A DNA stretch of 64,000 nucleotides from Candidatus Anderseniibacteriota bacterium. GTDB taxonomy: Bacteria > Patescibacteriota > JAUYIX01. Positions 3,461 to 50,065 of the stretch are shown piece after piece; the stretch's first letter is position 1, and every line of letters begins with the position of its first letter. A program made the translations under genes and the position numbers. The stretch spans positions 12,311-76,310 of the forward strand of contig JAXLZM010000003.1 of NCBI GenBank assembly GCA_046350855.1, given 5' to 3'. Under the pieces are notes generated by a model. That model did no database searches and had not been told where the DNA came from. It saw only the letters and a program-made list of their open reading frames with translations.

Positions 3461-3461
3461 A

Positions 3462-11264: not shown

Positions 11265-11282
11265 CTTAAGAAAAGATTAAAT
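11265..11282. repeat. 18-nt intergenic motif CTTAAGAAAAGATTAAAT (copy 1 of 3), 23 nt upstream of the HNH start on the gene strand
   Basis: Identical to 18876..18893 and 17/18 identical to 50048..50065. Confidence 0.7.
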
Positions 11283-11286
11283 GCTA

Positions 11287-11727
11287 CTAGAGTTTTGCCG
11301 CAGCCGGTTTGGCCGACGTAGGAGTTGCCGCTGTCGCTTTTTTGATTTCTTGATCGCGATGCACTGCTGCACGACCGGCTAAGCCACGCATGTAGTACAA
11401 CTTAGCGCGACGCACCTTAGCCTGCTTTTTGATCTCAACTTTTTCGATCAAGGGCGAGTGCATAAAAAAAGTGCGCTCGACTCCGATCCCGTTAGCTACC
11501 TTGCGCACCAAAATACTGGCACCCAACTTACCGCGGCGCACCGACTTGAGCACCAAGCCCTCAAAAATCTGGATGCGAACTTTGCCTTTTTCCAAAATGC
11601 GCTGGTGCACGGCAACCGTTGCCCCGGGACGAACCTCGGGCAGATCTGCCCTAAGCTGACCCGCTTCTACGCTGGCCACCAGAGATTCGAGTGATTTTGT
11701 GTTTGTTGAGCCTTCCATAGCGGGCAC
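11287..11727 (-). CDS. rplS: 50S ribosomal protein L19 with Ala/Lys-rich C-terminal tail
   Basis: FMHSPLIEKVEIKKQAKVRRAKLYYMRGL is L19-typical. Confidence 0.85.
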   Translation of the reverse strand: MPAMEGSTNTKSLESLVASVEAGQLRADLPEVRPGATVAVHQRILEKGKVRIQIFEGLVLKSVRRGKLGASILVRKVANGIGVERTFFMHSPLIEKVEIKKQAKVRRAKLYYMRGLAGRAAVHRDQEIKKATAATPTSAKPAAAKL

Positions 11728-11730
11728 ACC

Positions 11731-12321
11731 CTACCCCGTGGCCAAACACTTGTCAATGCTTTTTTGGATAGTCGCAACGGTTTGGCCAAGGTGGCCCTCC
11801 TCGTTATAGATGACGCTGTCGTACTCACGGATATGTTTGAGCTCCCGTCGAGCAGTCTGTAAACGCTCTCGCACTTTGGCCACAGAGATATCTGGCTCAC
11901 GACGAATGATGCGTTTTTTGAGGGTCACCAGCTTTTTGGTGGTAATAAAAAAAGAACAAATGCGATAGTGGTGCAAGCGCCGGATCTTAGCGAATCCTTT
12001 TACATCGATAATCTTGACCGGGATTTTGCCCAAACGTATGACACGTTCCAGATCGGCCCATAGAGTGCCAAAGGAGTAGCCATGTACGCGTGCGGTCTCG
12101 ACAAATTTACCGGCCTTACGCCACGCTCCAAAACGTTTGGGCGTGACGCGGCGATACTCCAGATCTTGTCGTTTACGATGCCCTGCCGGTCGCGTCGTTG
12201 TGCTCAGTACCGTAGCGTAGCGTCGCGATTTTTTAAGCAGGCGTTCTAAGACGACGCTCTTGCCGGCCCCACTCGGTCCAGAAATCACCACTAGTAGTCT
12301 TTGTCGCTGCTCCGTCCCCAT
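11731..12321 (-). CDS. gmk: Guanylate kinase
   Basis: P-loop ISGPSGAGKS and the TTR motif. Confidence 0.75.
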   Translation of the reverse strand: MGTEQRQRLLVVISGPSGAGKSVVLERLLKKSRRYATVLSTTTRPAGHRKRQDLEYRRVTPKRFGAWRKAGKFVETARVHGYSFGTLWADLERVIRLGKIPVKIIDVKGFAKIRRLHHYRICSFFITTKKLVTLKKRIIRREPDISVAKVRERLQTARRELKHIREYDSVIYNEEGHLGQTVATIQKSIDKCLATG

Positions 12322-12330
12322 ACATCCAGT

Positions 12331-13098
12331 CTACTTGATCTGTGCCAAAAAGTTTTTTAGCTCCAGGGGCAGTGGTGCGATAAAGGTTACTCCCCTACCG
12401 CTCACCGGATGAACAAAATTGAGTTGCGCCGCGTGTAAAAAGTGGCGCGTGAGTCCTTGTTGGGCACTTGCCGCGACCAACTTTTTTGGCGCGTAGAGCT
12501 GGTCACCCACAACCGGGTACCCAAGTGCCTTGAGGTGCACCCGAATCTGATGGGTGCGGCCGGTTTTAGGGTGGGCCTCGAGCAAGGTGGTGTCCGCAAA
12601 GCGTTTTTGCACGACAAAATCGGTCCGGGCCGGACGGTATAGCGTCTGGTCGGCCAGCGTAGCTACATCGTTAGGATGACGGGCGCCAAAGGTCCCCGAA
12701 CCGGTACGGCGGATAGAAAGTTCTGCCGTTGTATGCTCCCACGGGACCCGACCATACACGAGTGTGAGGTACTTTTTTTGTACGTGTCGATCTTTAAAGG
12801 CCGCCTTAAGTTTTGTAAATGCCGTCGGCGTACGGGCCACGACCAGCACACCTGAGGTATCCCGGTCGAGTCGATGCACAATCCCGGGTCGATCGGGGTC
12901 CTCGCCCACACCCCGTAGCTCTGGGTAGCGCTCGAGGAGCCAGTCCACCAAGTTCGCCTCGTGTTTTTTCTCGGTTGGAGCGCGGTGCACGGCCAAACCT
13001 GCGGGCTTGTCGAGCACGATGAGCTGTTCATCCGTAAAAATGAGGCGCGGGGCAGGTTTATTTTGTTTTTTGGCACTCATTGCCGGCCAGTGTAGCAT
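12331..13098 (-). CDS. RluA-family pseudouridine synthase
   Basis: Catalytic motif HRLDRDTSGVLVVA. Confidence 0.8.
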   Translation of the reverse strand: MLHWPAMSAKKQNKPAPRLIFTDEQLIVLDKPAGLAVHRAPTEKKHEANLVDWLLERYPELRGVGEDPDRPGIVHRLDRDTSGVLVVARTPTAFTKLKAAFKDRHVQKKYLTLVYGRVPWEHTTAELSIRRTGSGTFGARHPNDVATLADQTLYRPARTDFVVQKRFADTTLLEAHPKTGRTHQIRVHLKALGYPVVGDQLYAPKKLVAASAQQGLTRHFLHAAQLNFVHPVSGRGVTFIAPLPLELKNFLAQIK

Positions 13099-13119
13099 GC
13101 AGCTAGGTACTATAAGCTG

Positions 13120-13195
13120 GGGCCTGTAGCTCAGTGGTCAGAGCAGGCGGCTCATAACCGCTTGGTCGTTGGTTCGATCCCAACCGGGCCCACCA
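13120..13195 (+). tRNA. tRNA-Met (anticodon CAT; elongator-type or tRNA-Ile2 precursor), CCA encoded
   Basis: GGGCCTG acceptor with a G-U pair, anticodon loop cTCATAAc, T-arm GTTGGTTCGATCCCAAC. Confidence 0.8.
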
Positions 13196-13215
13196 AAAAA
13201 TACGTCCGCGGCGGA

Positions 13216-14370
13216 TCAAACTACCGTTCGGCGGAGATGCTGTGCGATGTGCACGAGCAAATCATACGGGATGGTCTTGCAACGCACGGCCGCTTGCGCG
13301 ATCGAGTTGGGAGCACTGGGATTTTGACTAAAGACGATGACCGGATCGCCCGCTTTGGCCTCGGGTAGATCGGTGATGTCGATCGAGGCGATGTTCATAC
13401 TGATGCGACCGATGATCAGCGCTGGTTTGCCGTGCACGCTGACGCTGCCGTTGCCGGAGAGGCGACGGTCGAGGCCCTCAAAATAGCCGATTGGGAGGGT
13501 GGCGACGCGGGTCGGACGCGTGGCGGTAAAGGTGGTGTTGTAGCCGACGTGCTCCCCCGGTTGAATGGTGCGTACAGCGGTAATCTGCGTCACAACTTGG
13601 AGAGCAGGCTTGAGATCGAGCGACCGAGCGGCGGCGGGGTCAATGCCATAGAGTCCGAGTCCAACCCTGGCACTGTTTGCCCGGATCTCTGTGGCAAATT
13701 GGGTGCCTGCTGAGTTGGCCACGTGTACTTGGCTGAGCTGCGGAAACACTGCATGTAGCCGCTCAACGACACGGTTCCAGACTTTGATTTGCATTCTCGT
13801 AAAATCCGGTACTGGTCCATCGGCATCAGCGAGGTGCGTACAGACCCCCGTGATACGGACGTTGGGGTTGCGCTTGAGCAGCTTGATGGTCTCATCAAGT
13901 TGGCTCACTAAAATTCCCTGTCGATGCATGCCCGTGTCGATCTTGAGATGAAAGGCTTGCGGAACGGTGAGTCTCGCGACGACTTCGCGCACGTGCTCGA
14001 TCCCGATTAGAGCAAAACTAACCCCGCTAAACTTTTGGCGTGCAATGTTGTGGGCGCTGGTGTAGCCCAAGACCAGTACGGGAGTACGGATGTGCTCATT
14101 TTGTAAGACCAACGCTTCGTAAAACGAATCGACCACCATAAAAGGTGGGTTGAGTCGATCAAACAGTTTAGCCACCGGGATTAAACCGTGTCCGTAGGCG
14201 TTACTTTTGAGAACAGGTGCCACGGCGCGATCGCCGAGTAGACGTACAAACTGAGCAAAATTGTGCTCGAGACGTGCTCGGCTAATTCGCACCGAGATCA
14301 ACGGTTGATACGTAAAGCGTGCCCGACGTAGCCACCTAAAGAATGCTCGCATACCGGCCGATCCTAACAC
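13216..14370 (-). CDS. alr: Alanine racemase
   Basis: PLP-lysine region VLKSNAYGHG and overall Alr length and organisation. GTG start. Confidence 0.8.
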   Translation of the reverse strand: MLGSAGMRAFFRWLRRARFTYQPLISVRISRARLEHNFAQFVRLLGDRAVAPVLKSNAYGHGLIPVAKLFDRLNPPFMVVDSFYEALVLQNEHIRTPVLVLGYTSAHNIARQKFSGVSFALIGIEHVREVVARLTVPQAFHLKIDTGMHRQGILVSQLDETIKLLKRNPNVRITGVCTHLADADGPVPDFTRMQIKVWNRVVERLHAVFPQLSQVHVANSAGTQFATEIRANSARVGLGLYGIDPAAARSLDLKPALQVVTQITAVRTIQPGEHVGYNTTFTATRPTRVATLPIGYFEGLDRRLSGNGSVSVHGKPALIIGRISMNIASIDITDLPEAKAGDPVIVFSQNPSAPNSIAQAAVRCKTIPYDLLVHIAQHLRRTVV

Positions 14371-14433
14371 ACGAGTTACGCATTGCGAATTAGTATAGAA
14401 ATCGAACCAAAGATGGTAGTATTGTACTACTAT

Positions 14434-15120
14434 ATGGTCTATCTAAAAGAAGAGTATAAACGAGCTATTTTTTTACGTTCTAAGGGCAAAACTTTTACTG
14501 AGATTAAAAAACAAGTACTCGTTTCTAAAGGTACCTTAAGCCTGTGGCTTAGAGATGTACCGATGGCCTCTAGATTCGAAAAAAAGATTTCTTCAAGAAA
14601 AAGAAAGGCTCTTCATTTTGCAAGAGTAAAAGCAGCTGCGTGGCATAGGAGACAAAAAGAGCTACGTCTAATGGTTGCGGATGAACAAGCTAAGGCAACA
14701 CTGAATCAAATTGATTTAACGCATGTACCAACACTGGAGTTGGCCCTGGCACTACTCTATTTGGGCGAGGGCTTCAAAAAGGTTCCCCAGACGGGTCTTG
14801 GCAACACTGATGTCAGTGTACTAAGAATATTTGTTCAGCTTCTTAAAAGCTGTTATGGAATTCTTCCCGCAGAACTGAATTGTCAATTGCATCTTCGCTA
14901 TGACCAAAACGAGTTACGAGAAAAGAAATATTGGTCAAAAGCATTGGGAATTCCGTTAGTCAAATTTAAATTTACTGCTTTTGATAAGAGAACCAAAAAT
15001 TCAAAAACGTACAAAGGCTATCATGGTGTATGTGCAATTCGAGTACGCGATATTGCAATCCAACGTAGACTGGTTAGTATTGGAAAACAGTTTGCCGGAT
15101 TAGCAAACACGCGCGCATAG
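14434..15120 (+). CDS. Putative homing endonuclease-like protein: N-terminal HTH plus single LAGLIDADG-like motif (LALALLYLGEGFK); paralog of 48051..48719; last 10 nt overlap tRNA-Val(GAC), stop is TAG of the tRNA D-stem
   Basis: Alignable with 48051..48719 (LRSKG..T...SLW.RDV; L.L.LLY.GEG.K; YWSK..GIPL). AT-rich by eye. The ORF track starts at TTG 14383, but alignment with the paralog favours ATG 14434. Confidence 0.5.
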   Translation: MVYLKEEYKRAIFLRSKGKTFTEIKKQVLVSKGTLSLWLRDVPMASRFEKKISSRKRKALHFARVKAAAWHRRQKELRLMVADEQAKATLNQIDLTHVPTLELALALLYLGEGFKKVPQTGLGNTDVSVLRIFVQLLKSCYGILPAELNCQLHLRYDQNELREKKYWSKALGIPLVKFKFTAFDKRTKNSKTYKGYHGVCAIRVRDIAIQRRLVSIGKQFAGLANTRA

Positions 15121-15187
15121 CTCAGCCTGGTTAGAGCGTACCCTTGACATGGGTAAGGCCCCAAGTTCAAATCTTGGTGCGCGCACC
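15111..15187 (+). tRNA. tRNA-Val (anticodon GAC), CCA encoded
   Basis: GCGCGCA-TAGCTCAGCCTGGTTAGAGC, anticodon stem TACCC/GGGTA with loop TTGACAT, T-arm CCAAGTTCAAATCTTGG. Confidence 0.85.
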
Positions 15188-15209
15188 ATAAAACCTAAAA
15201 AAGGGTAAA

Positions 15210-16820
15210 CTAAGACTGGCGCGCTTTGTGCTCCTTGAGTTCGGCGTTCTCTTGCTCCAAGGCAACCACTTTGCGCTCTTGGTCAACGATAAACTCGTTG
15301 GTCTCTTTGAGCTGGGATTTGAGAGTGTTGAGTTTTGCCAACAATTTAGTACGCTCGGAGATCGGTCGAAATATCTTTTGGACGGCTACGACTTTTCCAT
15401 CGTGTAGCATGGGGTGGGCGCGTAGTTCAAACATCTGGGTCGAACCATCTTTTTGCCGTAACAGGACCGTGTAGGCCGGATGTGTTTTACCAGAGAGTGA
15501 GTCAGAAAAATTCTTGAGCAAAATCGGCAGCGATGAGGGCGGCACGATCCCACTATCGGCAAAAAACGTGCCGGCGAGCTCATCGCGCGAGTAGCCCAGG
15601 GTGTCTTCAAAAGCATGGTTAACCGTCCGAACACGCCCCTCTGGATCAAGCACCAAAATAGGATCGAGTGAGCCCTCTACGATCTCATCGTGGTCCTGCT
15701 GTATCGAGCGCAGACGCCTAATCATGTCCTGAGCGGTACCGAGTGCTCGGCTGCGCGCGTTGAGCAGGTCTCGTACCGAGAGTGCAATGAGCGAACTCAA
15801 AAACAGACCGATCAACAAAACGATACTTGAGGTCCACCCACCCAGGGGATTATTTTTTTTGAGCTGACTGATGCGTACGGTCCAGGGTTGGTCCGCAACG
15901 GTTACTTCTGCATCACGTGTAAAGGCGGGGTCGGGAGAGTTTTCGGCAAGTTTAGTTCGTTCATAAAACGGATCAGCGGTATCGGGTGAACCCTCATAGA
16001 GCTGCACGTTGATGTTAGGTGAGAGCTCTAGCTCGTTGAGCGCCTTATCAAAAAAGGTCTCGGCAATAAAACTCACCGAGAGTATTCCAGCAAAAGCTGC
16101 CCGACGCTGATCCACCGTCGTCAGCGCTGCCCCCTTTTTGTAAAGCGGGGCCATAAATAAAAAGGCGGGTTGGTTGGTGATGACCGAGTCGATCTCTTTA
16201 GTGACCGTAATTGAGCCGCTGTCGCGCGCTTTTTCGGCGGCCGCTTTGCGATTAGGCTCAGAAAAATAATCAAAGCCCTGGCCGGGGGCAATGTTGCCGT
16301 CGTAGGGTTCGTAATAGGTTACGGGCAAATAAGCACTGCGCTGGCCGGGCGGGTCGATGGAGAAACTCGGGAACCCCTCTGGCCGCAAACTCTTATCTGT
16401 CCTGACTTCTTCTTCAAAAGCTTGCTTGTTGGCATCCGGCACGTAGACCGCAAACGCGCTACTGGTGATGCCGCTGATCTTTTTGCTCGCACTGAGGATC
16501 TGATGGGCCCGGTCGTACTCACCAAAGGTGACTTTTTGACTAGCTTCAAATAAAATTTGGAAAGAATCGATGTAGCTTGTCGCCTCGGAGACCGAGTCCG
16601 CGACGAGCCGCTCAACACGGGCCGCATCCCGCAAAAAAACTTGCTGTTCGGCTCGGATCACGAGGGCATGCACGATCTGCCAGACGGCGATCGTACCGAG
16701 CATCAAAATAAAAAAGATCGCTAATACAAAGCCAAAGGCCCGGCCGCGATCCACTTGCGTTGATTTTTCTTTTTCTCCTTTATGCATAAAAGGGCCAAAG
16801 GCTAATAATAGCATAGACAT
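15210..16820 (-). CDS. Membrane sensor protein with extracytoplasmic CHASE-like domain, TM segment, cytoplasmic PAS domain and C-terminal coiled coil; no kinase or other output domain
   Basis: N-terminal TM, a periplasmic domain of about 270 aa with CHASE-like features, a second TM, a PAS-like segment (ILVLDPEGRVRTVNHAFEDTLGYSRDELAG) and a heptad-rich tail. Confidence 0.55.
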   Translation of the reverse strand: MSMLLLAFGPFMHKGEKEKSTQVDRGRAFGFVLAIFFILMLGTIAVWQIVHALVIRAEQQVFLRDAARVERLVADSVSEATSYIDSFQILFEASQKVTFGEYDRAHQILSASKKISGITSSAFAVYVPDANKQAFEEEVRTDKSLRPEGFPSFSIDPPGQRSAYLPVTYYEPYDGNIAPGQGFDYFSEPNRKAAAEKARDSGSITVTKEIDSVITNQPAFLFMAPLYKKGAALTTVDQRRAAFAGILSVSFIAETFFDKALNELELSPNINVQLYEGSPDTADPFYERTKLAENSPDPAFTRDAEVTVADQPWTVRISQLKKNNPLGGWTSSIVLLIGLFLSSLIALSVRDLLNARSRALGTAQDMIRRLRSIQQDHDEIVEGSLDPILVLDPEGRVRTVNHAFEDTLGYSRDELAGTFFADSGIVPPSSLPILLKNFSDSLSGKTHPAYTVLLRQKDGSTQMFELRAHPMLHDGKVVAVQKIFRPISERTKLLAKLNTLKSQLKETNEFIVDQERKVVALEQENAELKEHKARQS

Positions 16821-16854
16821 AGCAGCCCATTTTGGTATAGGTTAGTCAATGCTT

Positions 16855-16940
16855 GGGCGCGTGGCGGAATGGCAGACGCGCTGGCTTCAGGAGCCAGTGG
16901 CCGCAAGGCCGTGGAGGTTCAAGTCCTCTCGCGCCCACCA
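16855..16940 (+). tRNA. tRNA-Leu (anticodon CAG), long variable arm, CCA encoded
   Basis: GGGCGCG acceptor, anticodon stem CTGGC/GCCAG with loop TTCAGGA, T-arm GGAGGTTCAAGTCCTCT. Confidence 0.85.
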
Positions 16941-17006
16941 AGCAAAAACGCCCCATGGGGCGTTTTTGCGTTGCGCCTTCTGAAGCGCCTTGGTCTGGCC
17001 CTCTTA

Positions 17007-17414
17007 TTACTGAACCGTAATCGTGCCTTTCATTCCGAGCGCCTCGTGGCCCGGCATGGTGCACCTGACCGTGTAGGAACCCGCTTTGGGCGCTGCGACC
17101 GTCACCGTCTCAGCTCCACCCGCTGGCACCGTTACGTTGATGCCGAGGTCGTTAGCCGTGTACGTATGGCTCAAGCTCCCCTCATTTTTTACCGTAATCG
17201 TATTAGTCACACCGGCCTTGAGCGTGAGCGCGCTCGGTGAGATGGCATACTCTGAGAGCGAGACCGTTACGCCGTTTTCTCCAACAGCAGTTGAGCCGGA
17301 GCTCGTGCTCGTAGCTTGGTTAGTCGTAGTGCTAGTGTTGGTGGTTGCCGATTTTGCACACCCGCCCAAAAGAGCGAGGCTGGCAAGTCCAACGACGACG
17401 TGTGTGAGTTTCAT
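17007..17414 (-). CDS. Cupredoxin-like (blue copper) lipoprotein
   Basis: Lipobox LALLGGC and a type-1 copper ligand pattern (H...C..H....M in SHTYT...CTMPGHEALGM). The start was moved to MKLTHVV, because the longer ORF to 17624 overlaps the helicase. Confidence 0.6.
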   Translation of the reverse strand: MKLTHVVVGLASLALLGGCAKSATTNTSTTTNQATSTSSGSTAVGENGVTVSLSEYAISPSALTLKAGVTNTITVKNEGSLSHTYTANDLGINVTVPAGGAETVTVAAPKAGSYTVRCTMPGHEALGMKGTITVQ

Positions 17415-17425
17415 GGTTGAACAAG

Positions 17426-18853
17426 TTACGGATAAGTACTCGCCAGTGTAACACGCCTCACTACCCGCCTCGTAAACCCGGTCGTAAAGGGAGTGGGTTC
17501 TCCCTGCGGAACACAAATGACCAAGCGATCCCGGGCCCGGGTCAACGCGACGTAAAAAATGTTGCGCTCTTCGCGCACTCGATCGTACCCGGCCAGTTGG
17601 TCTATCGCAGAGAGAGGTCCGCACGGACCTGCGGAGTATGCCTCTCCCGAGGCCCGTGCCGGAAAACCAAACCGATTTTGGGCGACGTTGAGAAGTATCA
17701 CTACCCGCGCCTCTAATCCTTTAAAGGCGTGGACCGTTAGTGCGCGGACTTTTGGGTAACGGATCCGCGCGCGCTTGAGTTGCGCAAGCGGCAGATGTGC
17801 GCGCGCCAGAAGTACGATCTCGTTTTGGGCAAAGCCTTTGGCCAGCAGTTCTGCCAATACGCGTAGGCAGAGCAGGTCCTCCCCGTAACGCGGATAGGTA
17901 ATGCACTCCGGCACCACACCCTCGCCCCGCGTCGGCAAAATCGGCAGGCCCTCGACTCGTTGCAAAAAACGATTGACCAGTGCGATGATCGTTGCACTCG
18001 AGCGGTAGTTAGTGCGCAAGACCAGTTGCTGCCAGAGCCGTGTGGTCCCCTCTCCGTATCCGTTAGGGACCGTTCCGGCAGAACCGCGCCAACCATACAG
18101 CGATTGGTTGGGGTCACCGACCCACGTTTGGGTGTCGGCCATCTTGCAATATGTGTCGATCAGCTGTAATTCTGCGGCGGCAGCATCTTGCGCTTCATCG
18201 ATCAAAACGTGCTGAGGCTGGCATGTCTTGAACGGCCCGTGTTGCTGCGCGGCCTGGATCAGGTGGGTAAAATCGGTCACCCCGTGGTGCTCGAGAACCG
18301 TTTGGTAGACCTGCATGAGGTGCACGACCAACCAGGCGAACGAATCTTGCTGCGCGATAGTCTTGAGTTTGTTACAAGCAGCCGTGAGCCCTACCTGGGT
18401 GAGCCGTTGGTGACTCTCCAACAGTTGCCGAACCAAAAAAGGGTGCGACCAGTTTTGTTGAACGCACAACTCACGCGCGTGACGCGTGGTCCGAGGTGCC
18501 GTCAGTATGCGACAAGCAATTTTCCAAAGTAATCGTCTGCGCTCTGCCTCTAGTATGAGCCGACCCGAGACGACATGAGAGCCCTGCAGTAAGCGGAGCG
18601 CCCAGGCATGAAACGTCCGCACGGCTACCGCTGGATAGCCGGCGTCTACCAAGCGACGCCGTAGTTCGTGGGCCGCTTTACGGGCAAAGGTCACGACCAG
18701 GATCTGGTGTGCGGCCGCGCGTCGAGCTTGTACGAGCCAAGCAATCCGCTGGATCAATACACTGGTTTTGCCGGAGCCGGCCGGCGCCACGATCGAGAGA
18801 CGCGCGGCCGCACTCGTAACGGCAGCTTGTTGCACTGAGTCGAGTCTCGGCAT
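17426..18853 (-). CDS. UvrD/Rep-family ATP-dependent DNA helicase, short form of 475 aa
   Basis: Walker A APAGSGKTSV near the N-terminus and UvrD-like helicase motifs (TFARKAAHELRRRL, DEAQD). Confidence 0.7.
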   Translation of the reverse strand: MPRLDSVQQAAVTSAAARLSIVAPAGSGKTSVLIQRIAWLVQARRAAAHQILVVTFARKAAHELRRRLVDAGYPAVAVRTFHAWALRLLQGSHVVSGRLILEAERRRLLWKIACRILTAPRTTRHARELCVQQNWSHPFLVRQLLESHQRLTQVGLTAACNKLKTIAQQDSFAWLVVHLMQVYQTVLEHHGVTDFTHLIQAAQQHGPFKTCQPQHVLIDEAQDAAAAELQLIDTYCKMADTQTWVGDPNQSLYGWRGSAGTVPNGYGEGTTRLWQQLVLRTNYRSSATIIALVNRFLQRVEGLPILPTRGEGVVPECITYPRYGEDLLCLRVLAELLAKGFAQNEIVLLARAHLPLAQLKRARIRYPKVRALTVHAFKGLEARVVILLNVAQNRFGFPARASGEAYSAGPCGPLSAIDQLAGYDRVREERNIFYVALTRARDRLVICVPQGEPTPFTTGFTRRVVRRVTLASTYP

Positions 18854-18875
18854 ACTGCCGGACTAGCACACTTAG

Positions 18876-18893
18876 CTTAAGAAAAGATTAAAT
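18876..18893. repeat. 18-nt intergenic motif CTTAAGAAAAGATTAAAT (copy 2 of 3), 22 nt upstream of the helicase start
   Basis: Exact match to copy 1. Confidence 0.7.
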
Positions 18894-18923
18894 TACGCCT
18901 GCGACGTGGGTCGATCTACAGAC

Positions 18924-20927: not shown

Positions 20928-20931
20928 CGTG

Positions 20932-40108: not shown

Positions 40109-40129
40109 GGCTTAGCTGCTCCGGACTCC

Positions 40130-42033: not shown

Positions 42034-42070
42034 AGCTTAAAAAAACCTAAAAACCGGCCTTTTAGCCGGT
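42034..42070 (-). terminator. Intrinsic terminator downstream of tRNA-Gly(GCC) and the DUF1704 gene
   Basis: On the minus strand ACCGGCUAAAAGGCCGGU is followed by UUUUUAGGUUUUUUU. Confidence 0.6.
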
Positions 42071-42099
42071 ACTTGCGTTACGTTATATGGCTAAATCCC

Positions 42100-42174
42100 T
42101 GGAGCGGGAGACGGGATTCGCACCCGCGACCTCTTCCTTGGCAAGGAAGCGTTCTGCTCCTGAACTACTCCCGC
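42100..42174 (-). tRNA. tRNA-Gly (anticodon GCC), CCA encoded
   Basis: The reverse complement gives GCGGGAG acceptor, anticodon stem CTTCC/GGAAG with loop TTGCCAA, T-arm GCGGGTGCGAATCCCGTC. Confidence 0.85.
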
Positions 42175-42243
42175 AAAAAGCTCGCTGTCGAGCTGGATTC
42201 TGTCCAGTTCGCCCAGTCTAAACTGCAAAAAGAGGCTTGTCTA

Positions 42244-43785
42244 CTAGTCTTTCTCAAGATCTTTTAGATCGGTGTCGGTGATCTCAAGTTGGTCCAAAAC
42301 CCATACATGGCGCTCGTTAGTTGGGTCAAATTTACCCAGGTTGAACCGATGTGCCTCTTCTGGCTTTTTGCCGATTAACTGCCAAATAGCCATGTTGCCT
42401 TCTCGATAAATGTAATCGCGGGTAAAGACCGCACCGGGGGTTTTGCCGTCGGTTCCTCTAAAGGTACGGACGGTGTTATCCCAGCCAACATTGGTGCCCA
42501 TTTCTGTGGCTTTGCGTATTTCCATTCCTTGGCTGATCCGGCGCAAAGTTGCATAGCGCTTGTTGATTTCGAAGAGCTCTCTAAAGTTTCTGGGCTTTCC
42601 GTCTATGCCAAGCGCCATACCAACCCCAAGATGGCCTGACGGAATTCCAAAGTCGACCCGGCCTTCATAGGCTTGTTCTGCTGCAATTGCGCCGCCCTCT
42701 TCTCCGCGAATATACCGATCAAGACCCGCTACTCCGAGCAGGCGCAATCTGCTGCGCTCACCACGCTCTCTGCGTAAGGGATGGGTAATAACTTCATGCA
42801 ATACGTAGGGCACTAAATCATTTATTTTTACGGGGTCGGAGGCCTGCTCAGGAACATAGACCTCTTTTTTATCCTGGCTGACTGCATAGCCTTTTCTGTT
42901 TGGATCGATAACGACTTTCCAACCAACTTTATCTAGACTAATGGTTTTAAGCGCGCTCTCGAACTCCTGGGCGACTTGCTCTGAGGTTAAGTCAAGTTGT
43001 TCTGGATGTTGCTTATTTCGCGGCAATTTAGTCTTCTCTACCCCGTATTTTTGCTCAATAGTCTCGATTGTTTCCTTAAACTGCGTACGATTTACTTTTT
43101 CGTAGTAGTCAATGGTCTCTTTAGGTGGGTACAAAAATTGCGTCTCACTCTGGCTTTCACTTGGGAGAAGTGCAAAAAACTCATCAGCCATTTTTTGAAC
43201 TTCTGGATTGTCAGGATGCAATTCACGTGCTTTTTCGGCTTCTTGTCTCACACCGTTAACGGTTGCAAAAAACATATCCTTATCTGGTTTACCAAAAACA
43301 TATTCGGAATAGCGCATAAACCGTCGGCTTTTACCTTCAGCCGTTGCACGAAGCATGCGGATGCTGGCGATCGATTCATTAATGCGCCAAAGATACGCCA
43401 TACGCATAACTAACTCTGGATCCTGCCTAGTCTCTTTTTTCCAAAGATCCGCCATCTTTCTACCAATATCTTTTTCGTTGAGTTGTAGCTCCTTCTTAAG
43501 GCTGAGCAACGTGTCTTCTTGTTGTTGTAATTGAGTCAGCTTCTCTGGAGTCAATTTGGGATAGTCGAGTTCTGGACTCTCGATTTCACCCTTTAAGAAA
43601 GCCTCCCGCTGGGAAGCGATTTTTTGCGGCGTATTCTCGATTGAGCTAATTACTTCAACCCCAAGATAGGGCTGAACACGATCATAGAGCTCCTTATCTA
43701 GCTGAGTTTTTTCCTGCTTTGGAGACTCCGCTGGAAGACCCAGCTCGTACGGTGAAGGACCGCGTTCAACGGAAAACATGGGCAA
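42244..43785 (-). CDS. DUF1704 / QEGLA-motif family protein (MATCAP-like putative HExxxH metallopeptidase), paralog A, AT-richer
   Basis: AYLWRINES, FGKPD, LHEVITHPLRRE, LDRYIRGEEGGAIAAEQAY and GKFDPTNERHVWVLD, all shared with the neighbouring paralog. Confidence 0.5.
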   Translation of the reverse strand: MPMFSVERGPSPYELGLPAESPKQEKTQLDKELYDRVQPYLGVEVISSIENTPQKIASQREAFLKGEIESPELDYPKLTPEKLTQLQQQEDTLLSLKKELQLNEKDIGRKMADLWKKETRQDPELVMRMAYLWRINESIASIRMLRATAEGKSRRFMRYSEYVFGKPDKDMFFATVNGVRQEAEKARELHPDNPEVQKMADEFFALLPSESQSETQFLYPPKETIDYYEKVNRTQFKETIETIEQKYGVEKTKLPRNKQHPEQLDLTSEQVAQEFESALKTISLDKVGWKVVIDPNRKGYAVSQDKKEVYVPEQASDPVKINDLVPYVLHEVITHPLRRERGERSRLRLLGVAGLDRYIRGEEGGAIAAEQAYEGRVDFGIPSGHLGVGMALGIDGKPRNFRELFEINKRYATLRRISQGMEIRKATEMGTNVGWDNTVRTFRGTDGKTPGAVFTRDYIYREGNMAIWQLIGKKPEEAHRFNLGKFDPTNERHVWVLDQLEITDTDLKDLEKD

Positions 43786-43911
43786 AGTATACCGTACCAG
43801 CCAGGTTGACCAAATGACATTTTTATGCTATTTTGCGGGGCTCTTTTGCCCTTCGACAATCCGTAAAAATCGTATTCAATCTGGTACGCAACCCATGAGG
43901 ACAAGCAAGAT

Positions 43912-45354
43912 ATGAGTGAACCAACGCACGTGGACTCAGAACTGTACGATCGGCTCAAGGAGCCCTTCGAGATGGACGCTCTTACCTATATCCAGGTCGA
44001 CGCAAAGTTGTTCCTGGCACAACGCCAGGACTTTTACGACGGCAACCTGCGCAACCCCGTCTTTACGTACAGCGGCTTGACCAAGGAAGTCTTGGCCAAG
44101 ATGAACCAGTTCGAGATGTTGCTTTTGGAAGCTCGCAAGGAACTGCGTGGAACGGATCGTTCCTACGCCCGCATCATGCAGGGCGGCTGGAACTCCATCA
44201 CGCGATCTCTGGAGACTGGTCGTCGTTTTGCCTACCTCTGGCGTATCAATGAGGCGCTCGCCAAGGTGCGACTGATCAAGGCCTGCGCCTCTGGCAAAAC
44301 CAAGCGCGCTCAACGCTACTCGATCTTCATGTTCGGCAAACCGGACTACAAGATGTATCGCGCAAGCGTGGCCGAGGTTCGTGCTGAGGTGCGTCGCTGG
44401 CAAGAGGCGCAGCCGGAGAACGAGGATCTCAAGCGCGTTGGCAACGAGTTGCTGACTCTCCTGCCCGATATCGGGCCGGAGGAACAGTACGAGTTGCCCA
44501 AGCCCAACCTGATCGCCAAACTCACGCAGTACGTGCGTGAGCAGTTCAAGTCGGTCATCGAATTCTATGAGAACCGCTACGGTGCGGACAAGACGCAGCG
44601 CGGTCTCGAGAACCTCGGCGACCTACCGTTTGTGACTAAGGAGGAAGCAATCGTCGGGTTCCAGTTCGCCATGCAGGTCTTCGCTCTGTTCAAGTTCGGG
44701 TTCAACCTTATCGTGACCTGGGCCAAGCGCGGCTATTCCGTCTCCCAAAAGGAGCTGGCAGTGTTCATTCCGGCCGATCCTGACTGCGGCAAAATCAAGT
44801 GCAACGAACTGGTGCGCTGGACGCTCCATGAGGTCTGCGTACACCCGCTTAGACGGTTGCGCGGACATCTCAGCAAGCTGCGACTTATGGAGTTTGGCCT
44901 CGATCGTTACGAGGCTGGAGAGGAAGGTTCGGCAATTGCAATCGAAGATGCCTACACCGGAGAAGTGCTGGGCTATGGTTTTGCGACCGGACCAGTCGCT
45001 GTCTCTCTCGCTCTCGGACTGGATGGTACGCCGCGCGACTTTCGGGACTTGTTCGAGATCATGTCGTTGTACGCGATCTGTCGTCGACTAGGGCCTCAAA
45101 AGCTCCCGCTTGAGAAGGCCACTCATGATGGCAAAGTCCTTGCCTTCGACAACACGATGCGGACCTTCCGGAGCGGTGACCCCTCCATTCCTGGTCGCGT
45201 CTTTACCAGGGACATCATCTACCGGAGAAGCAACCGTGCTTTTTGGGAGACGATGGAGTCGCATCCGGAGCGACTCGAGCACTTACTGGACGGCAAGTAC
45301 GATCTCGCCAATGAGCGACACATGTGGATTCTCGAATGCATCGAGGCTGCATGA
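43912..45354 (+). CDS. DUF1704 / QEGLA-motif family protein (MATCAP-like putative HExxxH metallopeptidase), paralog B, GC-richer
   Basis: FAYLWRINEA, FGKPD, LHEVCVHPLRR, LDRYEAGEEGSAIAIEDAY and GKYDLANERHMWILE. Confidence 0.5.
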   Translation: MSEPTHVDSELYDRLKEPFEMDALTYIQVDAKLFLAQRQDFYDGNLRNPVFTYSGLTKEVLAKMNQFEMLLLEARKELRGTDRSYARIMQGGWNSITRSLETGRRFAYLWRINEALAKVRLIKACASGKTKRAQRYSIFMFGKPDYKMYRASVAEVRAEVRRWQEAQPENEDLKRVGNELLTLLPDIGPEEQYELPKPNLIAKLTQYVREQFKSVIEFYENRYGADKTQRGLENLGDLPFVTKEEAIVGFQFAMQVFALFKFGFNLIVTWAKRGYSVSQKELAVFIPADPDCGKIKCNELVRWTLHEVCVHPLRRLRGHLSKLRLMEFGLDRYEAGEEGSAIAIEDAYTGEVLGYGFATGPVAVSLALGLDGTPRDFRDLFEIMSLYAICRRLGPQKLPLEKATHDGKVLAFDNTMRTFRSGDPSIPGRVFTRDIIYRRSNRAFWETMESHPERLEHLLDGKYDLANERHMWILECIEAA

Positions 45355-45425
45355 ACTACAACGGCCCCACTCTTCGAAAGAAGAGTCGGGGCCTTTTTCT
45401 TTTGGGGCACTTTGTTAGCCCCTAT

Positions 45426-46892: not shown

Positions 46893-47037
46893 AACCGATT
46901 AGTTGTACAGCATTTTGAGCAACTATTCAACCGGTGCGGCTCACATTGTTGTTACGCCAGATACAAAAAGGCCCCGGTTTACACCGGGGCCTTTAGTTCA
47001 CCCTGCCTTAGGTGGGACAGAGTGGCAGACTAGACGC

Positions 47038-47430
47038 TTACGCGCTTACCGCCGAGGACGAACCATTCTTACCCAAGAAAGCGGCAAGAAGTGCCCAGAT
47101 ACCGATCGCCAAGTGCAGGATCGAGTCGGCTGGGTTCTCAAGGTTTGCACCCAAGAACGCCGGGGTAAAGATCGAGTAGATACCGACCAATACGCCGATA
47201 ATTCCGAGCAAGACCACGACCCACTTTTGGACCATTGCTGGTACTGCAAAAGCGAGGATCAAGGCGACAACACCCAAAATGGTGTGGGCCCAGTTCTCAC
47301 CGTTATCAAACCACCAGGCATCGCCAAAGATGGATTGATCTGGGGTGGGACCAATGATCCCAAAGAACCCGATGACTCCGACCAACAGCAATACGATGCC
47401 GCCGATCAGGAGGAACTGTTTAGCGTTCAT
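47038..47430 (-). CDS. Hypothetical membrane protein (four TM helices)
   Basis: 130-aa hydrophobic ORF. Confidence 0.4.
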   Translation of the reverse strand: MNAKQFLLIGGIVLLLVGVIGFFGIIGPTPDQSIFGDAWWFDNGENWAHTILGVVALILAFAVPAMVQKWVVVLLGIIGVLVGIYSIFTPAFLGANLENPADSILHLAIGIWALLAAFLGKNGSSSAVSA

Positions 47431-47559
47431 ATAGGTAGAAAGCTTAATGGATTAGGGGCCAAGGCGGCCGTTAGGGCATTTATAGCACATCGCTTCCACA
47501 AATGGAGTGGCCTTTTCCACATCAGCTGCCGGTTGAACCGGGGCCGTCGGACAGCCCCG

Positions 47560-47634
47560 TGGAGCGGGAGACGGGATTCGAACCCGCGACCTTCTCCTTG
47601 GGAAGGAGACATTCTACCCCTGAACTACTCCCGC
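47560..47634 (-). tRNA. tRNA-Gly (anticodon CCC), CCA encoded
   Basis: Near-duplicate of tRNA-Gly(GCC). Anticodon stem TCTCC/GGAGA with loop TTCCCAA. Confidence 0.85.
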
Positions 47635-47647
47635 CAGTTTCTCCCTA

Positions 47648-47939
47648 TGGTGCCGAGGGCCAGGATCGAACTGGCGACGCCAGCCTCTTCCATACTTGGA
47701 CTATCTCATCATCCTTGCCTATTTGTTCAGACAAGGAGCTGGGCGCTTGTGTAGGAGTATTGTTGGGACTCACCTACTAGTCTCTACGCCTTCCGGTGGA
47801 ATTTAACCCGTACCGGCTTGGTTCGGGATTGGCAAACTTACGCTTGCTTTTCCCCGAGTTCACCCAGTTTTTAAAGATTCATTACTGAACCATGCCCCAA
47901 AGAGTCTAGGGCTGCGCTCTACCACTGAGCTACCTCGGC
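47648..47939 (-). tRNA. tRNA-Phe (anticodon GAA) interrupted in the anticodon loop, after U33, by a 217-nt group I intron; exons 47908..47939 and 47648..47690
   Basis: 5' exon GCCGAGGTAGCTCAGTGGTAGAGCGCAGCCCT, 3' exon GAAGAGGCTGGCGTCGCCAGTTCGATCCTGGCCCTCGGCACCA. The spliced product folds into a canonical cloverleaf with loop CUGAAGA. Confidence 0.8.
47691..47907 (-). mobile_element. Group I self-splicing intron (subgroup IC3-like, no ORF) in tRNA-Phe
   Basis: P1 pairs exon GCCCU with intron GGGGC, with a U.G wobble at the 5' splice site. P10 pairs intron UCUUU with 3' exon GAAGA. The R element GUAGAGACUAGUAGG and S element GAUGAGAUAGUCC (P7) resemble the Azoarcus and Anabaena tRNA introns. 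Omega-G comes before the 3' splice site. Confidence 0.8.
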
Positions 47940-47983
47940 ACGGCTGGCATACTAACAGCTCATCCTGCCTCAATCAACTCATG

Positions 47984-48060
47984 TGGTGGGCACTGTAGGG
48001 ATCGAACCTACGACCTCGTCAGTGTAAATGACGCGCTCTAACCAGCTGAGCTAAGTGCCC
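47984..48060 (-). tRNA. tRNA-Val (anticodon TAC), CCA encoded
   Basis: The reverse complement gives GGGCACT-TAGCTCAGCTGGTTAGAGC, anticodon stem CGTCA/TGACG with loop TTTACAC, T-arm GTAGGTTCGATCCCTAC. Confidence 0.85.
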
Positions 48061-48719
48061 AAAGATGCTTTAGTTACACCCTCTATCCAACCAAGAATAG
48101 ACAATAATAGCCGAGTGTCACAGATAACGATATCGAAGGTACCATATGGTAACGAATCTCGCTTACCCTTGCTGTTGCGGTTGCGTTTTCGATATGTTTT
48201 GTAAAACTGTTTTAGCGGAATACCAGAAACTTTTGACCAGTAGTGTTCTGCGAACCGATGGTCAAGGTGACCATGGATATGAATATGTCCTCTGAACTTT
48301 TTTTCTGGAACAGCACAAATCTCTTTAAAAAACCGCATCATTATTTGAACACTTTTTGGATCTCCATTGGAGAACCCAACTAAACCGTGATTTGTCTTTC
48401 TGCCCTCTCCCCAATACAAACCAATGCCCAGAATCCACAGATCACGCCGCGAAATCCGCTTGATCGATGCTGCCGCTATACTAGTAGTAACCGCACGTTT
48501 TACCATTTCATGTCTGAGCCTCGTTTGACGCCTCGATTCAATAACCTCAATGCTTGTATGACGTGCTTTAAGCCTATTAACTTGTTTTGGAGTTAGAGAT
48601 ACGTCGCGGACCCAAAGACTTGCTGTACTTTTTGAAATAGCAAGGGCTCGCGTAATTTGTTTCAAGGAGTATCCCTTTGAGCGTAAAATTCTTGCCCTAC
48701 GTCGCTCGATAAGCTTCAT
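48051..48719 (-). CDS. Putative homing endonuclease-like protein (HTH plus single LAGLIDADG-like motif ILGIGLYWGEGRK), paralog of 14434..15120; last 10 nt overlap tRNA-Val(TAC), stop is TAG of the tRNA D-stem
   Basis: Paralogous to 14434..15120. AT-rich by eye. AT-rich promoter-like upstream region with TATTATGAT. Confidence 0.5.
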   Translation of the reverse strand: MKLIERRRARILRSKGYSLKQITRALAISKSTASLWVRDVSLTPKQVNRLKARHTSIEVIESRRQTRLRHEMVKRAVTTSIAAASIKRISRRDLWILGIGLYWGEGRKTNHGLVGFSNGDPKSVQIMMRFFKEICAVPEKKFRGHIHIHGHLDHRFAEHYWSKVSGIPLKQFYKTYRKRNRNSKGKRDSLPYGTFDIVICDTRLLLSILGWIEGVTKASLGT

Positions 48720-48756
48720 GGGACTATTTTATCATAATACACTATCCCAGGGTTCG

Positions 48757-48790
48757 ATTTTTTAAATTAAAAGCGCGGGAGTACCGCGCT
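48757..48790 (-). terminator. Intrinsic terminator downstream of small ORF 48853..49122
   Basis: On the minus strand AGCGCGGUACUCCCGCGCU is followed by UUUUAAUUUAAAAAAU. Confidence 0.55.
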
Positions 48791-48804
48791 CTATACAGTA
48801 GTTA

Positions 48805-48837
48805 GGGAGAGGGAGGATGAACCACGGTTCATCCTCC
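48805..48837. repeat. SD-containing hairpin element, copy A (AGAGGGAGGAUGAACC-AC-GGUUCAUCCUCC)
   Basis: 12-bp perfect stem. Shares the AGAGGGAGGA prefix and the ...CCUCC closing arm with the elements at 63150..63186 and 63557..63589. Confidence 0.6.
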
Positions 48838-48852
48838 GGGAGAACTAGGGAG

Positions 48853-49122
48853 CTAGGAAGCGACGTCGCTCGCGAAGGTGGTCTCGGCCAGCACAGCCAA
48901 GCCCGCCAGACTACCCTGGTCGAGCATCTCGAAGTGCTTGCAGATCGGGCAACCGTGTGCACCGGCCGGGTGGATGAGGAGACGCTGCGTTTGGTGGTTG
49001 GTCTTGGGATTGTCGGTCGAGCCGTTGGGGCAGAAAGGTGAACGATCGCTGAACTGCCAACCGAACGAGTACGCAATGGGGAGTTTGCGGAGCTGATCCT
49101 CGGTCAGATTCTCAAATGCCAT
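48853..49122 (-). CDS. Hypothetical 89-aa Cys/His-containing protein (CPNG...HGCPICKH), own RBS and terminator, flanked by 16-bp perfect inverted repeats
   Basis: Strong SD (AAGGAG, 5 nt, ATG). Terminator at 48757..48790. Inverted repeat TACAGTAGTTAGGGAG at 48794..48809 and its reverse complement at 49152..49167. Confidence 0.5.
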   Translation of the reverse strand: MAFENLTEDQLRKLPIAYSFGWQFSDRSPFCPNGSTDNPKTNHQTQRLLIHPAGAHGCPICKHFEMLDQGSLAGLAVLAETTFASDVAS

Positions 49123-49287
49123 CCTTCTCCTTATGGGGCGTATCCGAAGCCCTCCCTAACTACTGTATGTGGTTCATACTGAACAAATCCCCTGAGGGGA
49201 CAAACAATGAGCTTATAGTAGTTGTGAGGTCGCGTCAAGCCTGGGCCTTTTTGGATTGGTCCGTCGGCTTGTATCTGAATATGTTCT

Positions 49288-49373
49288 TGGTGCGCGAGGG
49301 GGGATTCGAACCCCCAAGCCTTGCGGCACATGCACCTCAAGCATGCGTGTCTAGCCAGTTGCACCACTCGCGC
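49288..49373 (-). tRNA. tRNA-Leu (anticodon GAG), long variable arm, CCA encoded
   Basis: The reverse complement gives GCGCGAG-TG-GTGCAACTGGCTAGACAC, anticodon stem CATGC/GCATG with loop TTGAGGT, a long variable arm and T-arm GGGGGTTCGAATCCCCC. Confidence 0.8.
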
Positions 49374-50025
49374 AGTAACCAGCAGGGTACGGATCTTCCC
49401 AGAGTATTGCAAGCGCCTTCTGTTTTTTTCTTGCCAGATGAGGAGAGGCGCTATCTTGATAGAAAGCTGTCAGGATTTTGCGTGCCTCGTGTTTAGAAAA
49501 CTTGGCCTGATAGGCCCCCGAACCACTTGTAACATGGCCCTTGGCACCAATAGTTTGTTGTGTTGCTTTAACCAGCCACTTTGCAAATTGAGCACTAGCC
49601 GTTGCGAAAGCTACATAGAACATAAAACTGCTCCGCCAACGCGGGTCCCAATATGCATAGACAGTTCCATCACCGTCGAATAGGCCCCTTAAAAAGTCAG
49701 CAAAAAAGTTCGGTGGAATACTCAACTTACCTAGCGTTCTAGATTTTCTAGGAGTTAATCCAATCGAAAGTAGAAAACGATAAAAAGTAACATCTCCAAA
49801 CTGGAGCTGATAGCCATTGCTACGTCCTGTAAAACCACTTTTCTTTTTGCTTACCCGATTCTTAATCGCCAAACACTTTTTTAAGGTTTGGATAAGATCA
49901 AGATTATTAGATGTAAAAAATAGATGGCGACCGTCTGGAGAAAGACAACCATCGCTCGCCATAAGGCCAACGACATAGGCCATATTCGAGCTCCATTTAC
50001 AGTTTATCCGACCTAGTGGTCTCAT
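49351..50025 (-). CDS. LAGLIDADG homing endonuclease (two motifs: VVGLMASDGCL and LRGLFDGDGTV); last 23 nt overlap tRNA-Leu(GAG), stop is the TAG of the tRNA D-loop
   Basis: Classical double-motif LAGLIDADG. The C-terminal codons (ASGATG, stop) are read from the tRNA sequence GCGCGAGTGGTGCAACTGGCTAG. AT-rich by eye. Confidence 0.85.
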   Translation of the reverse strand: MRPLGRINCKWSSNMAYVVGLMASDGCLSPDGRHLFFTSNNLDLIQTLKKCLAIKNRVSKKKSGFTGRSNGYQLQFGDVTFYRFLLSIGLTPRKSRTLGKLSIPPNFFADFLRGLFDGDGTVYAYWDPRWRSSFMFYVAFATASAQFAKWLVKATQQTIGAKGHVTSGSGAYQAKFSKHEARKILTAFYQDSASPHLARKKQKALAILWEDPYPAGYCASGATG

Positions 50026-50047
50026 TAATTGACCATAGCAAATTCAT

Positions 50048-50065
50048 CTTAAAAAAAGATTAAAT
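50048..50065. repeat. 18-nt intergenic motif CTTAAAAAAAGATTAAAT (copy 3 of 3, one mismatch), 22 nt upstream of the LAGLIDADG start
   Basis: 17/18 identical to copies 1 and 2. Confidence 0.65.

Follow-up and report, generated by a model that had tools for sequence, protein, structure and literature searches.

The PmrA box consists of two XTTAAY hexamers (CTTAAT, CCTAAG and TTTAAG are documented) located 5 bp apart, on which the PmrA dimer binds head-to-tail with the residue N188 reading the AA of TTAA, and this box overlaps or replaces the -35 hexamer of the promoter; PhoB, on the pstS promoter, occupies the positions -41 to -25 (PMC3973317, PMC10570014). A site of a very similar design occurs in the window, the whole stretch of 64,000 nucleotides (nt) analysed here, which comes from contig JAXLZM010000003.1 of a Candidatus Anderseniibacteriota bacterium. 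In this window, an 18-mer, ATTTAATCTTTTCTTAAG, precedes three genes encoding an HNH endonuclease, a short UvrD-like helicase of 475 amino acids (aa) and a LAGLIDADG protein, respectively. The explanation retained as the best, with moderate confidence and on the basis of sequence comparison, is that the 18-mer represents a response-regulator box of the OmpR/PhoB family, which stands in for the -35 hexamer at a limited group of leaderless promoters.

According to this explanation, a dimer of the response regulator encoded at 3925-4602 would bind the two half-sites of the box head-to-tail and, in the way known for promoters dependent on PmrA or PhoB, would recruit the RNA polymerase where the -35 hexamer is absent. 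Between the end of the box and the predicted -10 hexamer of the sigma-70 type (TAnnnT or TAnnnC) there are 10-11 bp, and the start codon comes 6-7 nt further on; the A of the ATG is therefore the probable first transcribed nucleotide. The native helicase-cupredoxin operon and the regulator's own gene would be the core targets. In this lineage, the HNH and LAGLIDADG genes, each located directly before a tRNA-Leu gene, carry the same box and would presumably respond to the same signal. This signal could plausibly be copper or redox, because the regulator is CopR/CusR-like, a gene for a P1B-type ATPase is divergent to it and a cupredoxin occurs among the targets.

The Patescibacteria, or Candidate Phyla Radiation (CPR), are uncultivated bacteria with very few regulators, and their transcription signals and regulons are almost uncharted. 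For this group, the window offers a concrete cis-element and a candidate regulator to go with it, a defined architecture in which a regulator box sits on a leaderless promoter, and a small regulon that is kept in several genomes, together with an example of selfish endonuclease genes taking up a host regulatory site. The design of the box is the classical one of the OmpR/PhoB family, so that nothing is overturned; two points stand out as unusual, the layout being leaderless and selfish endonuclease genes having been recruited.

Among the closest described systems, the PmrA (BasR) box known from Salmonella, Klebsiella and E. coli (pbgP, ugd, pmrC) resembles the box of the window in its hexamers, its 5-bp spacing and its location at the -35 position; the regulator of the window also shares T187, N188, V192, H193 and K153 with PmrA. 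The two systems differ by their targets, which are here a helicase-cupredoxin operon and endonuclease genes instead of lipopolysaccharide-modification genes, and by their promoters, which are leaderless in the window, with a conserved T-rich linker and a box situated some 2 bp further upstream. The Pho box of PhoB-dependent promoters such as pstS is similarly a tandem direct repeat, about 18 bp long, whose half-sites follow each other at an 11-bp period around an AT-rich linker, and it takes the place of the -35 hexamer; PhoB covers -41 to -25, and the box of the window about -39 to -23. However, its half-site, of the CTGTCAT type, differs in sequence, and no phosphate-related gene was seen among the targets of the window. 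The heavy-metal regulons of CopR, CusR and HprR correspond to the nearest regulator family, and the window has a cupredoxin as a predicted target and a P1B-type ATPase divergent to the regulator. In contrast to these regulons, the regulator of the window scores below the family cutoff and lacks an adjacent sensor kinase, and the ATPase, whose operon has a box-free promoter of its own, shows no obvious CPC motif. The known CusR and HprR boxes are reportedly palindromic.

With respect to the promoter layout, the leaderless promoters of Actinobacteria and Deinococcus, in which TANNNT precedes the start codon by about 7 nt, resemble the box sites (6-7 nt, no usable Shine-Dalgarno sequence), the difference being the 18-bp regulator box added here at a fixed distance of 10-11 bp upstream. 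No description of leaderless promoters in Patescibacteria was found in the literature searched. Finally, the free-standing homing endonucleases of phage T4 (seg, mob, I-TevI) are also encoded by selfish open reading frames (ORFs) located between host genes and endowed with a dedicated promoter; the seg, mob and I-TevI genes of T4 have regulated promoters of their own. A possible hairpin hiding the start codon in read-through transcripts (z-score -3.1 in the related locus L238) can likewise be compared to T4. Here, in contrast to T4, the genes reside on a cellular chromosome, under a predicted host two-component box and in the leaders of tRNA-Leu genes.

The 18-mer and its putative promoter layout

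The original prediction described three copies of an AT-rich 18-mer, two exact and one with a single mismatch, lying between the stop codon of an upstream gene and a start codon on the minus strand, 22-23 nt before the ATG, and considered their number as far from chance. A scan of the window bears out this description. The third copy, ATTTAATCTTTTTTTAAG, differs from the two exact ones by C13T, the distances to the downstream ATG are 23, 22 and 22 nt for copies 1, 2 and 3, and the co-oriented genes located before them are rplS, ftsH and the gene for a uracil-DNA glycosylase (UDG), respectively. The 18-mer contains 3 G+C out of 18 positions in a window of about 55% G+C. In shuffled sequences, 0.02 matches are expected at up to three mismatches, and the window contains no further match at this level; since the remaining best matches have at least five mismatches, the 18-mer does not belong to a graded family of sites. 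Its possible nature as a truncated piece of a longer repeat, which the original prediction considered as refuting, was also examined: the flanks of the three copies do not align, which makes it a discrete 18-mer.

Exact scans for the 18-mer in a genome collection and in a viral collection returned at least 118 single matches among those listed and 33 matches, respectively, all of them due to chance and located in AT-rich genomes; in one match from Saccharimonadales (L044), the motif lies between genes on the opposite strand. Within the window, a weaker box-like sequence, TTTTTAGGTTTTTTTAAG, occurs on the minus strand at 42036-42053 (position weight matrix score 20.7), just 3' of a tRNA-Gly(GCC) gene, and was discarded as an additional box owing to its wrong geometry, TTGAC and a short ORF coming next.

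The 18-mer holds the direct repeat YTTAAK-N5-YTTAAK, readable as TTTAAT-CTTTT-CTTAAG, with 11 bp from start to start and a T-rich linker. Exact occurrences of this repeat number three in the window, every one at the 18-mer. A common layout, consisting of the box, 10-11 nt, TAnnnT (TAnnnC or TAnnnG at the helicases), 6-7 nt and ATG or GTG, is found at the three sites of the window and at seven sites in relatives, and orthologous sites in six related genomes share it. These relatives were reached via proteins, as orthologs of the HNH endonuclease, the helicase and the regulator, and their loci are labelled L154 to L243. Ten sites fit the repeat with at most two mismatches, Y at position 1 and K at position 6 recurring in both halves. 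In place of the TACCCT hexamer found before the HNH gene of the window, its orthologs exhibit TACACT (L154) and TACTCT (L155), and the helicase orthologs exhibit TACTCC, TACCTC, TAGACG or TATCCT as their -10 hexamer.

The specificity of this layout was measured in 191 kb of DNA of the lineage, using a strict geometry defined as the box, 10-11 nt, TAnnnN, 6-7 nt and a start codon. Among the 111 boxes with at most two mismatches, 12 show the strict geometry, compared to about 0.4 expected, and 11 of these 12 precede HNH (3), helicase (5), LAGLIDADG (1) or regulator (2) genes; the twelfth one is the reverse strand of the regulator box of L243.

No TTGACA-like hexamer occurs at 16-18 bp from the -10 hexamer of the box promoters, and a canonical -35 within the 18-mer was discarded for the same reason. 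Ordinary promoters of the TTGACA-17-TAnnnT type occur in the window before ftsH and rplS and at 37.9 kb, and several other genes of the window have TAnnnT at 6-7 nt before their start codon; because the -10 is of the same type at these ordinary promoters, only the -35 appears to be replaced at the box promoters. Box-bearing genes lack a usable Shine-Dalgarno sequence, the GGAG of the HNH gene being only 1 nt away from the ATG. The simplest reading is that the box sites are leaderless promoters with the ATG as transcription start, in which the 18-mer would occupy about -40 to -23 in place of the -35 hexamer; the fixed spacing of 22-23 nt would thus result from the promoter geometry linking the box, the -10 and the start codon. 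An alternative start of the LAGLIDADG gene, ATG 49983, is preceded by GGAG and would bring the spacing to 64 nt; the conserved geometry of TATGGT, 6 nt and ATG favours ATG 50025. The original prediction of a promoter element dedicated to these genes, with a meaningful spacing, therefore stands, whereas its identification with the -10 element or with a part of the 5' untranslated region does not, since a separate TAnnnN lies 10-11 nt downstream. As a -10 element the 18-mer was also discarded because TTTAAT is devoid of A at position 2 and the TAnnnT located downstream is better placed. The coordinates of the features are collected in Table 1.

Table 1. Location of the box copies, predicted promoter elements and associated genes in the 64-kb window.
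Feature	Position	Strand	Particulars	Basis
Partial box of the regulator promoter	3886..3902	+	TTTCAC-agcta-TTTAAG; proximal half-site perfect, distal half-site degenerate	
Predicted -10 of the regulator promoter	3913..3918	+	TACGGT, 10 nt past the partial box, 6 nt before ATG 3925	
OmpR/PhoB-family response regulator	3925..4602	+	225 aa, MKILVVEDE..., recognition helix TNSIEVHILYLRKK; candidate box binder	
tRNA-Leu(UAA)	10658..10745	-	co-oriented, directly after the HNH gene	
HNH endonuclease	10723..11241	-	172 aa; last 23 nt overlap tRNA-Leu(UAA)	
Predicted -10 of the HNH promoter	11249..11254	-	TACCCT, 10 nt past box 1, 7 nt before ATG 11241	from sequence
Box copy 1	11265..11282	-	ATTTAATCTTTTCTTAAG = a-TTTAAT-CTTTT-CTTAAG, before the HNH gene, 4 nt past the rplS stop	
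Terminator-like hairpin	16944..16967	-	AAAAACGCCCCATGGGGCGTTTTT, intrinsic type, end of the helicase-cupredoxin operon	from sequence
Cupredoxin lipoprotein	17007..17414	-	135 aa, ligand motif CTMPGHEALGM, 11 nt past the helicase stop	
Short UvrD/helicase-IV-like helicase	17426..18853	-	475 aa, S1-tilS-ftsH-helicase synteny	
Predicted -10 of the helicase promoter	18860..18865	-	TAGTCC with TGc directly in front (extended -10), 10 nt past box 2, 6 nt before ATG 18853	
Box copy 2	18876..18893	-	before the helicase-cupredoxin operon, 30 nt past the ftsH stop	
tRNA-Leu(GAG)	49288..49373	-	co-oriented, directly after the LAGLIDADG gene	
LAGLIDADG endonuclease	49351..50025	-	224 aa from ATG 50025; 3' end overlaps tRNA-Leu(GAG) by 23 nt	
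Predicted -10 of the LAGLIDADG promoter	50032..50037	-	TATGGT preceded by TGc, 10 nt past box 3, 6 nt before ATG 50025	
Box copy 3	50048..50065	-	ATTTAATCTTTTTTTAAG, before the LAGLIDADG gene, 24 nt past the UDG stop	

Genes associated with the box

The family of the short helicase is narrow, with about 12 relatives, each encoded after S1-tilS-ftsH; given this constant context, the gene, which also has the native G+C content, is native and vertically inherited. The ftsH-helicase spacers of L237, L238, L239 and L240 carry the box, although the helicases are only 39-55% identical. Altogether, the element is present before this ftsH-linked gene in six genomes, with protein identity falling as low as 39%. 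In the alignment of the spacers from five genomes, the island of conservation coincides with the box plus the first two bases (TA) of the -10 hexamer, and L240 retains a 13-mer, AATCTTTTCTTAA, unaltered. As judged from the sequences, the conservation at the helicase indicates a selection on an old cis-regulatory element. The original prediction considered that the motif could have been co-opted by, or co-mobilised with, the helicase; the direction is the reverse, the helicase representing the conserved bearer of the box, at an ancient site, and the endonucleases its adopters. The cupredoxin gene directly follows the helicase gene in all relatives (L155 and L238 to L241).

The start region of the helicase gene can fold into a hairpin that spans both the -10 and the AUG, most clearly in L238 at 9980-10005 (GGCGUGCUAC/GUAGCAUGCC, with the z-score mentioned above) and more weakly in the window at 18840-18866. 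Such a hairpin would be present only in transcripts reading through from ftsH and could keep those transcripts untranslated. Just past the helicase-cupredoxin operon, a gene on the minus strand (15210-16820) encodes a sensor protein with CHASE and PAS domains devoid of any kinase domain. In L239 and L240, the equivalent CHASE/PAS gene is followed by a gene for a PAS-HisKA-HATPase kinase, which is missing there in the window.

The candidate regulator consists of a Response_reg and a Trans_reg_C domain. At its own promoter in the window, and with the same geometry in L242 and L155, a proximal half-site only is found, whereas L243 exhibits a perfect box (CTTAAG-ATTTA-TTTAAT, 11 nt, TAGATT, 6 nt, ATG). 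On sequence grounds, this geometry fits an autoregulation. Orthologs of the regulator share a contig with the box-bearing helicase in 7 of the 7 cases that could be paired; the pairing was confirmed from the loci for the contigs of 868 kb and 1.22 Mb and relied on equal contig size for most others, the ortholog of the L240 genome being a member of a 90% cluster. Using the residue numbering of the deposited K. pneumoniae PmrA, the regulator keeps K153, R171, T187, N188, E191, V192, H193, I194 and R198, and five of the six base-contacting residues (K153, T187, N188, V192, H193, H195) are identical. The helix TNSIEVH is invariant among regulator orthologs of 61-85% identity.

The neighbourhood of the regulator (49-4602 of the window) is conserved and comprises LigD (ligase and Prim-Pol domains), a degenerate P1B-type ATPase and a membrane protein of about 110 aa. 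The ATPase, divergent to the regulator, possesses the DKTGT motif, and no CPC motif was seen in it; the true start of the membrane protein (MLVK...) lies near 3794. Both genes form an operon with its own leaderless promoter, TGgTACAAT, 6 nt and ATG, and a box was looked for upstream of this operon and not found.

Among the endonucleases, the HNH orthologs of L154 and L155 share the rluD-gmk-rplS-HNH synteny with the window and have kept the element and its spacing in an otherwise diverged spacer: L154 (87% HNH identity) contains tCTTAATCTTcTCTTAAG at 22 nt from the ATG and L155 (68%) contains TTTATCTTTTCTTAAt at 23 nt. In L238, rplS is followed by tRNA-Leu(UAA) and DUF5652, without HNH gene and without motif, so that the motif comes and goes with the HNH cassette. 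The 18-mer was absent upstream of 80 HNH homologs from other CPR lineages, and the idea that it is common to the whole HNH family was therefore discarded. These homologs mostly possess a canonical leaderless promoter of the TTGAC/TATAAT type, made of TTGAC, about 17 nt, TGATATAAT, 5-8 nt and ATG, and the -10 geometry occurs in 66 of the 79 genes of the family. The HNH promoter carries the box, which would be that of a host regulator, only in the present lineage. The HNH gene and tRNA-Leu(UAA) are probably co-transcribed.

The HNH family is widespread, with 5382 matches, and members from very different CPR lineages are 60-72% identical, which is more conserved than the native helicase. A co-oriented tRNA-Leu(UAA) gene directly follows the HNH gene at all 74 loci with enough sequence, the gap ranging mostly from -20 to +15 nt, and in 42 of 77 cases a tRNA-Cys(GCA) gene on the same strand comes next on the upstream side. 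No description of an HNH gene arranged before tRNA-Leu(UAA) was found in the literature searched. From L157 to L236, an inverted repeat (GGTAGACGC...GCGTCTWCC), situated about 90 nt upstream of the gene, brackets the promoter of most HNH homologs, e.g., at 9938-9997 of L169; its left arm resembles the D-arm of a class II tRNA, and some loci hold a whole 5' half of a tRNA.

Two other ORFs of low G+C content, located at 14446-15120 (+) and 48051-48719 (-), are paralogous (29% identity, E-value 3e-19) and have in common an N-terminal helix-turn-helix (HTH) and a LYxGEGxK motif, possibly LAGLIDADG-like. Each overlaps a co-oriented tRNA-Val gene located 3' of it (GAC at 15111-15188 and UAC at 47984-48060, respectively). 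Four foreign endonuclease-like ORFs thus occur in tRNA leaders of one window, the two HTH ORFs being devoid of the box. The tRNA-Leu(GAG) and tRNA-Val(UAC) genes are adjacent in other CPR genomes (e.g., L222, 4400-4566) and 1.2 kb apart in the window, where the insert at 48061-49287 comprises the HTH ORF, an ORF of 104 aa, a perfect inverted repeat of 17 nt (48793-48809/49152-49168) and a perfect 12-nt hairpin (48812-48837).

Weighing of the explanations

The sequences themselves show the repeat, its geometry, its conservation across genomes, its co-occurrence with the regulator and the retention of the DNA-reading residues; the transcription start, the binding by the regulator encoded at 3925-4602, an activating rather than a repressing role and the signal are what we infer. 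Several observations weigh against the proposed OmpR/PhoB box with its candidate regulator. The -10 hexamers and the leaderless starts are read from the sequence alone. Three of the four genomes have only the proximal half-site at the regulator promoter, and in L241 (64.5% G+C) the helicase spacer is reduced to a TAA...TAA skeleton with no evident -10. H195 is replaced by L in the regulator (R in most orthologs) and N196 by Y. The regulator is not an ortholog of PmrA: it reaches only 168.7 bits with the NCBIfam PmrA model, below the cutoff of 330, and DrrD, RegX3 and PhoP resemble its DNA-binding domain more closely, with an E-value of 3e-20 for DrrD versus 5e-7 for PmrA. The nearest family model is that of the heavy-metal CopR/CusR type (TIGR01387, 216.5 bits, below the cutoff of 279.2), followed by the CusR and HprR models; this nearest family counts in favour of the explanation, the second gene of the operon encoding a cupredoxin. 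Against a regulon of the CopR/CusR type, no HisKA/HATPase gene adjoins the regulator gene in the window, L155, L242 or L243. The T-rich linker is kept more strongly than the published PmrA comparison suggests, so that DNA bending or another contact may matter. Since the scan covered 64 kb of the source genome and about 130 kb of relatives, further OmpR-type regulators or box sites are possible.

The extended -10 elements at the helicase and LAGLIDADG promoters also count on this opposite side, because TGn could allow activity in the absence of an activator and the box could then be a repressor site. A repressor operator, occupied by the same regulator acting negatively or by an unrelated dimeric protein, and blocking extended -10 promoters, is accordingly the most serious competitor, even if an unlikely one. 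TGn occurs right before the -10 at the helicase (TGcTAGTCC) and LAGLIDADG (TGcTATGGT) promoters and can substitute for a -35, a site over the -35 suits repression as much as activation, and the palindromic TTAA core is by itself compatible with a symmetric dimer. However, the flanks of the half-sites are asymmetric in the same sense, with Y at position 1 and K at position 6 of both halves (T at position 6 in L155, L240 and L243, T at position 1 in the third site of the window and in L237), which fits a direct and not an inverted repeat. Moreover, the HNH promoters lack TGn and have weak -10 hexamers (TACCCT, TACACT, TACTCT), and should thus need help, and the box lies exactly where class-II-like activators of the OmpR/PhoB family sit. 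A LexA/SOS box, a candidate prompted by the helicase, was set aside, the 18-mer not being palindromic; the LexA motif of Patescibacteria is reportedly of a GAAC-N4-GTTC-like type, which the 18-mer does not resemble.

The replacement of a -35 at a fixed distance from the -10, by three near-identical copies, is also often seen with specialised polymerases or sigma factors, but the -35-region element of a dedicated alternative sigma factor is improbable here: the downstream hexamer is the ordinary TAnnnT of other promoters of the window, with no distinct -10, eighteen conserved bases with two repeats one helical turn apart do not look like a site for sigma region 4, and no sigma gene was seen adjoining any of the sites. 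It is harder still to credit an action of the motif in RNA, as a translation enhancer or as a processing or insulating site in transcripts reading through from rplS, ftsH and the UDG gene. The position of the motif between a co-oriented gene and the next start codon, the absence of a well-spaced Shine-Dalgarno sequence in the downstream genes and a pyrimidine-rich tract that could bind ribosomal protein S1 would suit such a role. However, the folds differ from site to site without significant structure (z-scores of -1.0 to -1.5), Rfam matches are limited to tRNAs with no family at the motif, and the TA-containing hexamer at 6-7 nt before the start codon is left unexplained; the element also occurs before the regulator gene, whose divergent neighbour leaves no possibility of a read-through transcript.

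The explanation with the least credit of all takes the motif for an end or an attachment site of mobile cassettes bearing the endonucleases, with the helicase co-mobilised; the original prediction had also envisaged a terminal element of insertions. The absence of the motif at the HNH-free site of L238 and the low G+C content of the HNH and LAGLIDADG regions agree with it. However, no copy with fewer than five mismatches is found near the 3' end of any cassette, nor are there shared terminal repeats, and the 80 HNH relatives from elsewhere are devoid of the element. Above all, the sites at the helicase and at the regulator contradict this explanation: the helicase is native in G+C content and synteny, and the conservation of the element at orthologous sites excludes a mobile-element terminus.

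Returning to the box of an OmpR/PhoB-family regulator, a farther-reaching proposal, which can only be put forward tentatively, is that the HNH and LAGLIDADG genes in the tRNA-Leu leaders are wired together with the helicase into a host two-component regulon, induced by an environmental signal such as a copper or redox stress, and possibly including the linked tRNA-Leu genes. If true, this would amount to a signal-timed homing by selfish genes, or to a stress module of nuclease and helicase that a reduced CPR genome has domesticated.

Genomic setting of the window

The window belongs to a CPR chromosome. Its HNH, helicase and regulator proteins each have a counterpart of 100% identity among the NCBI proteins of a metagenome-assembled genome of Candidatus Andersenbacteria, on a contig of 116.8 kb. 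The genes of the window comprise bacterial housekeeping genes (L19, FtsH, TilS, S1, trigger factor, NusA, H+-PPase) together with DUF5652, and a phage origin was discarded, a megablast search of 20 kb against phage records having returned nothing. A divergent pair of genes of low G+C content (0.45-0.49) is located at 42244-43785 (-) and 43912-45354 (+), and in each of the two encoded proteins the single match, which is MATCAP-like (tyrosine carboxypeptidase), is confined to the C-terminal part.

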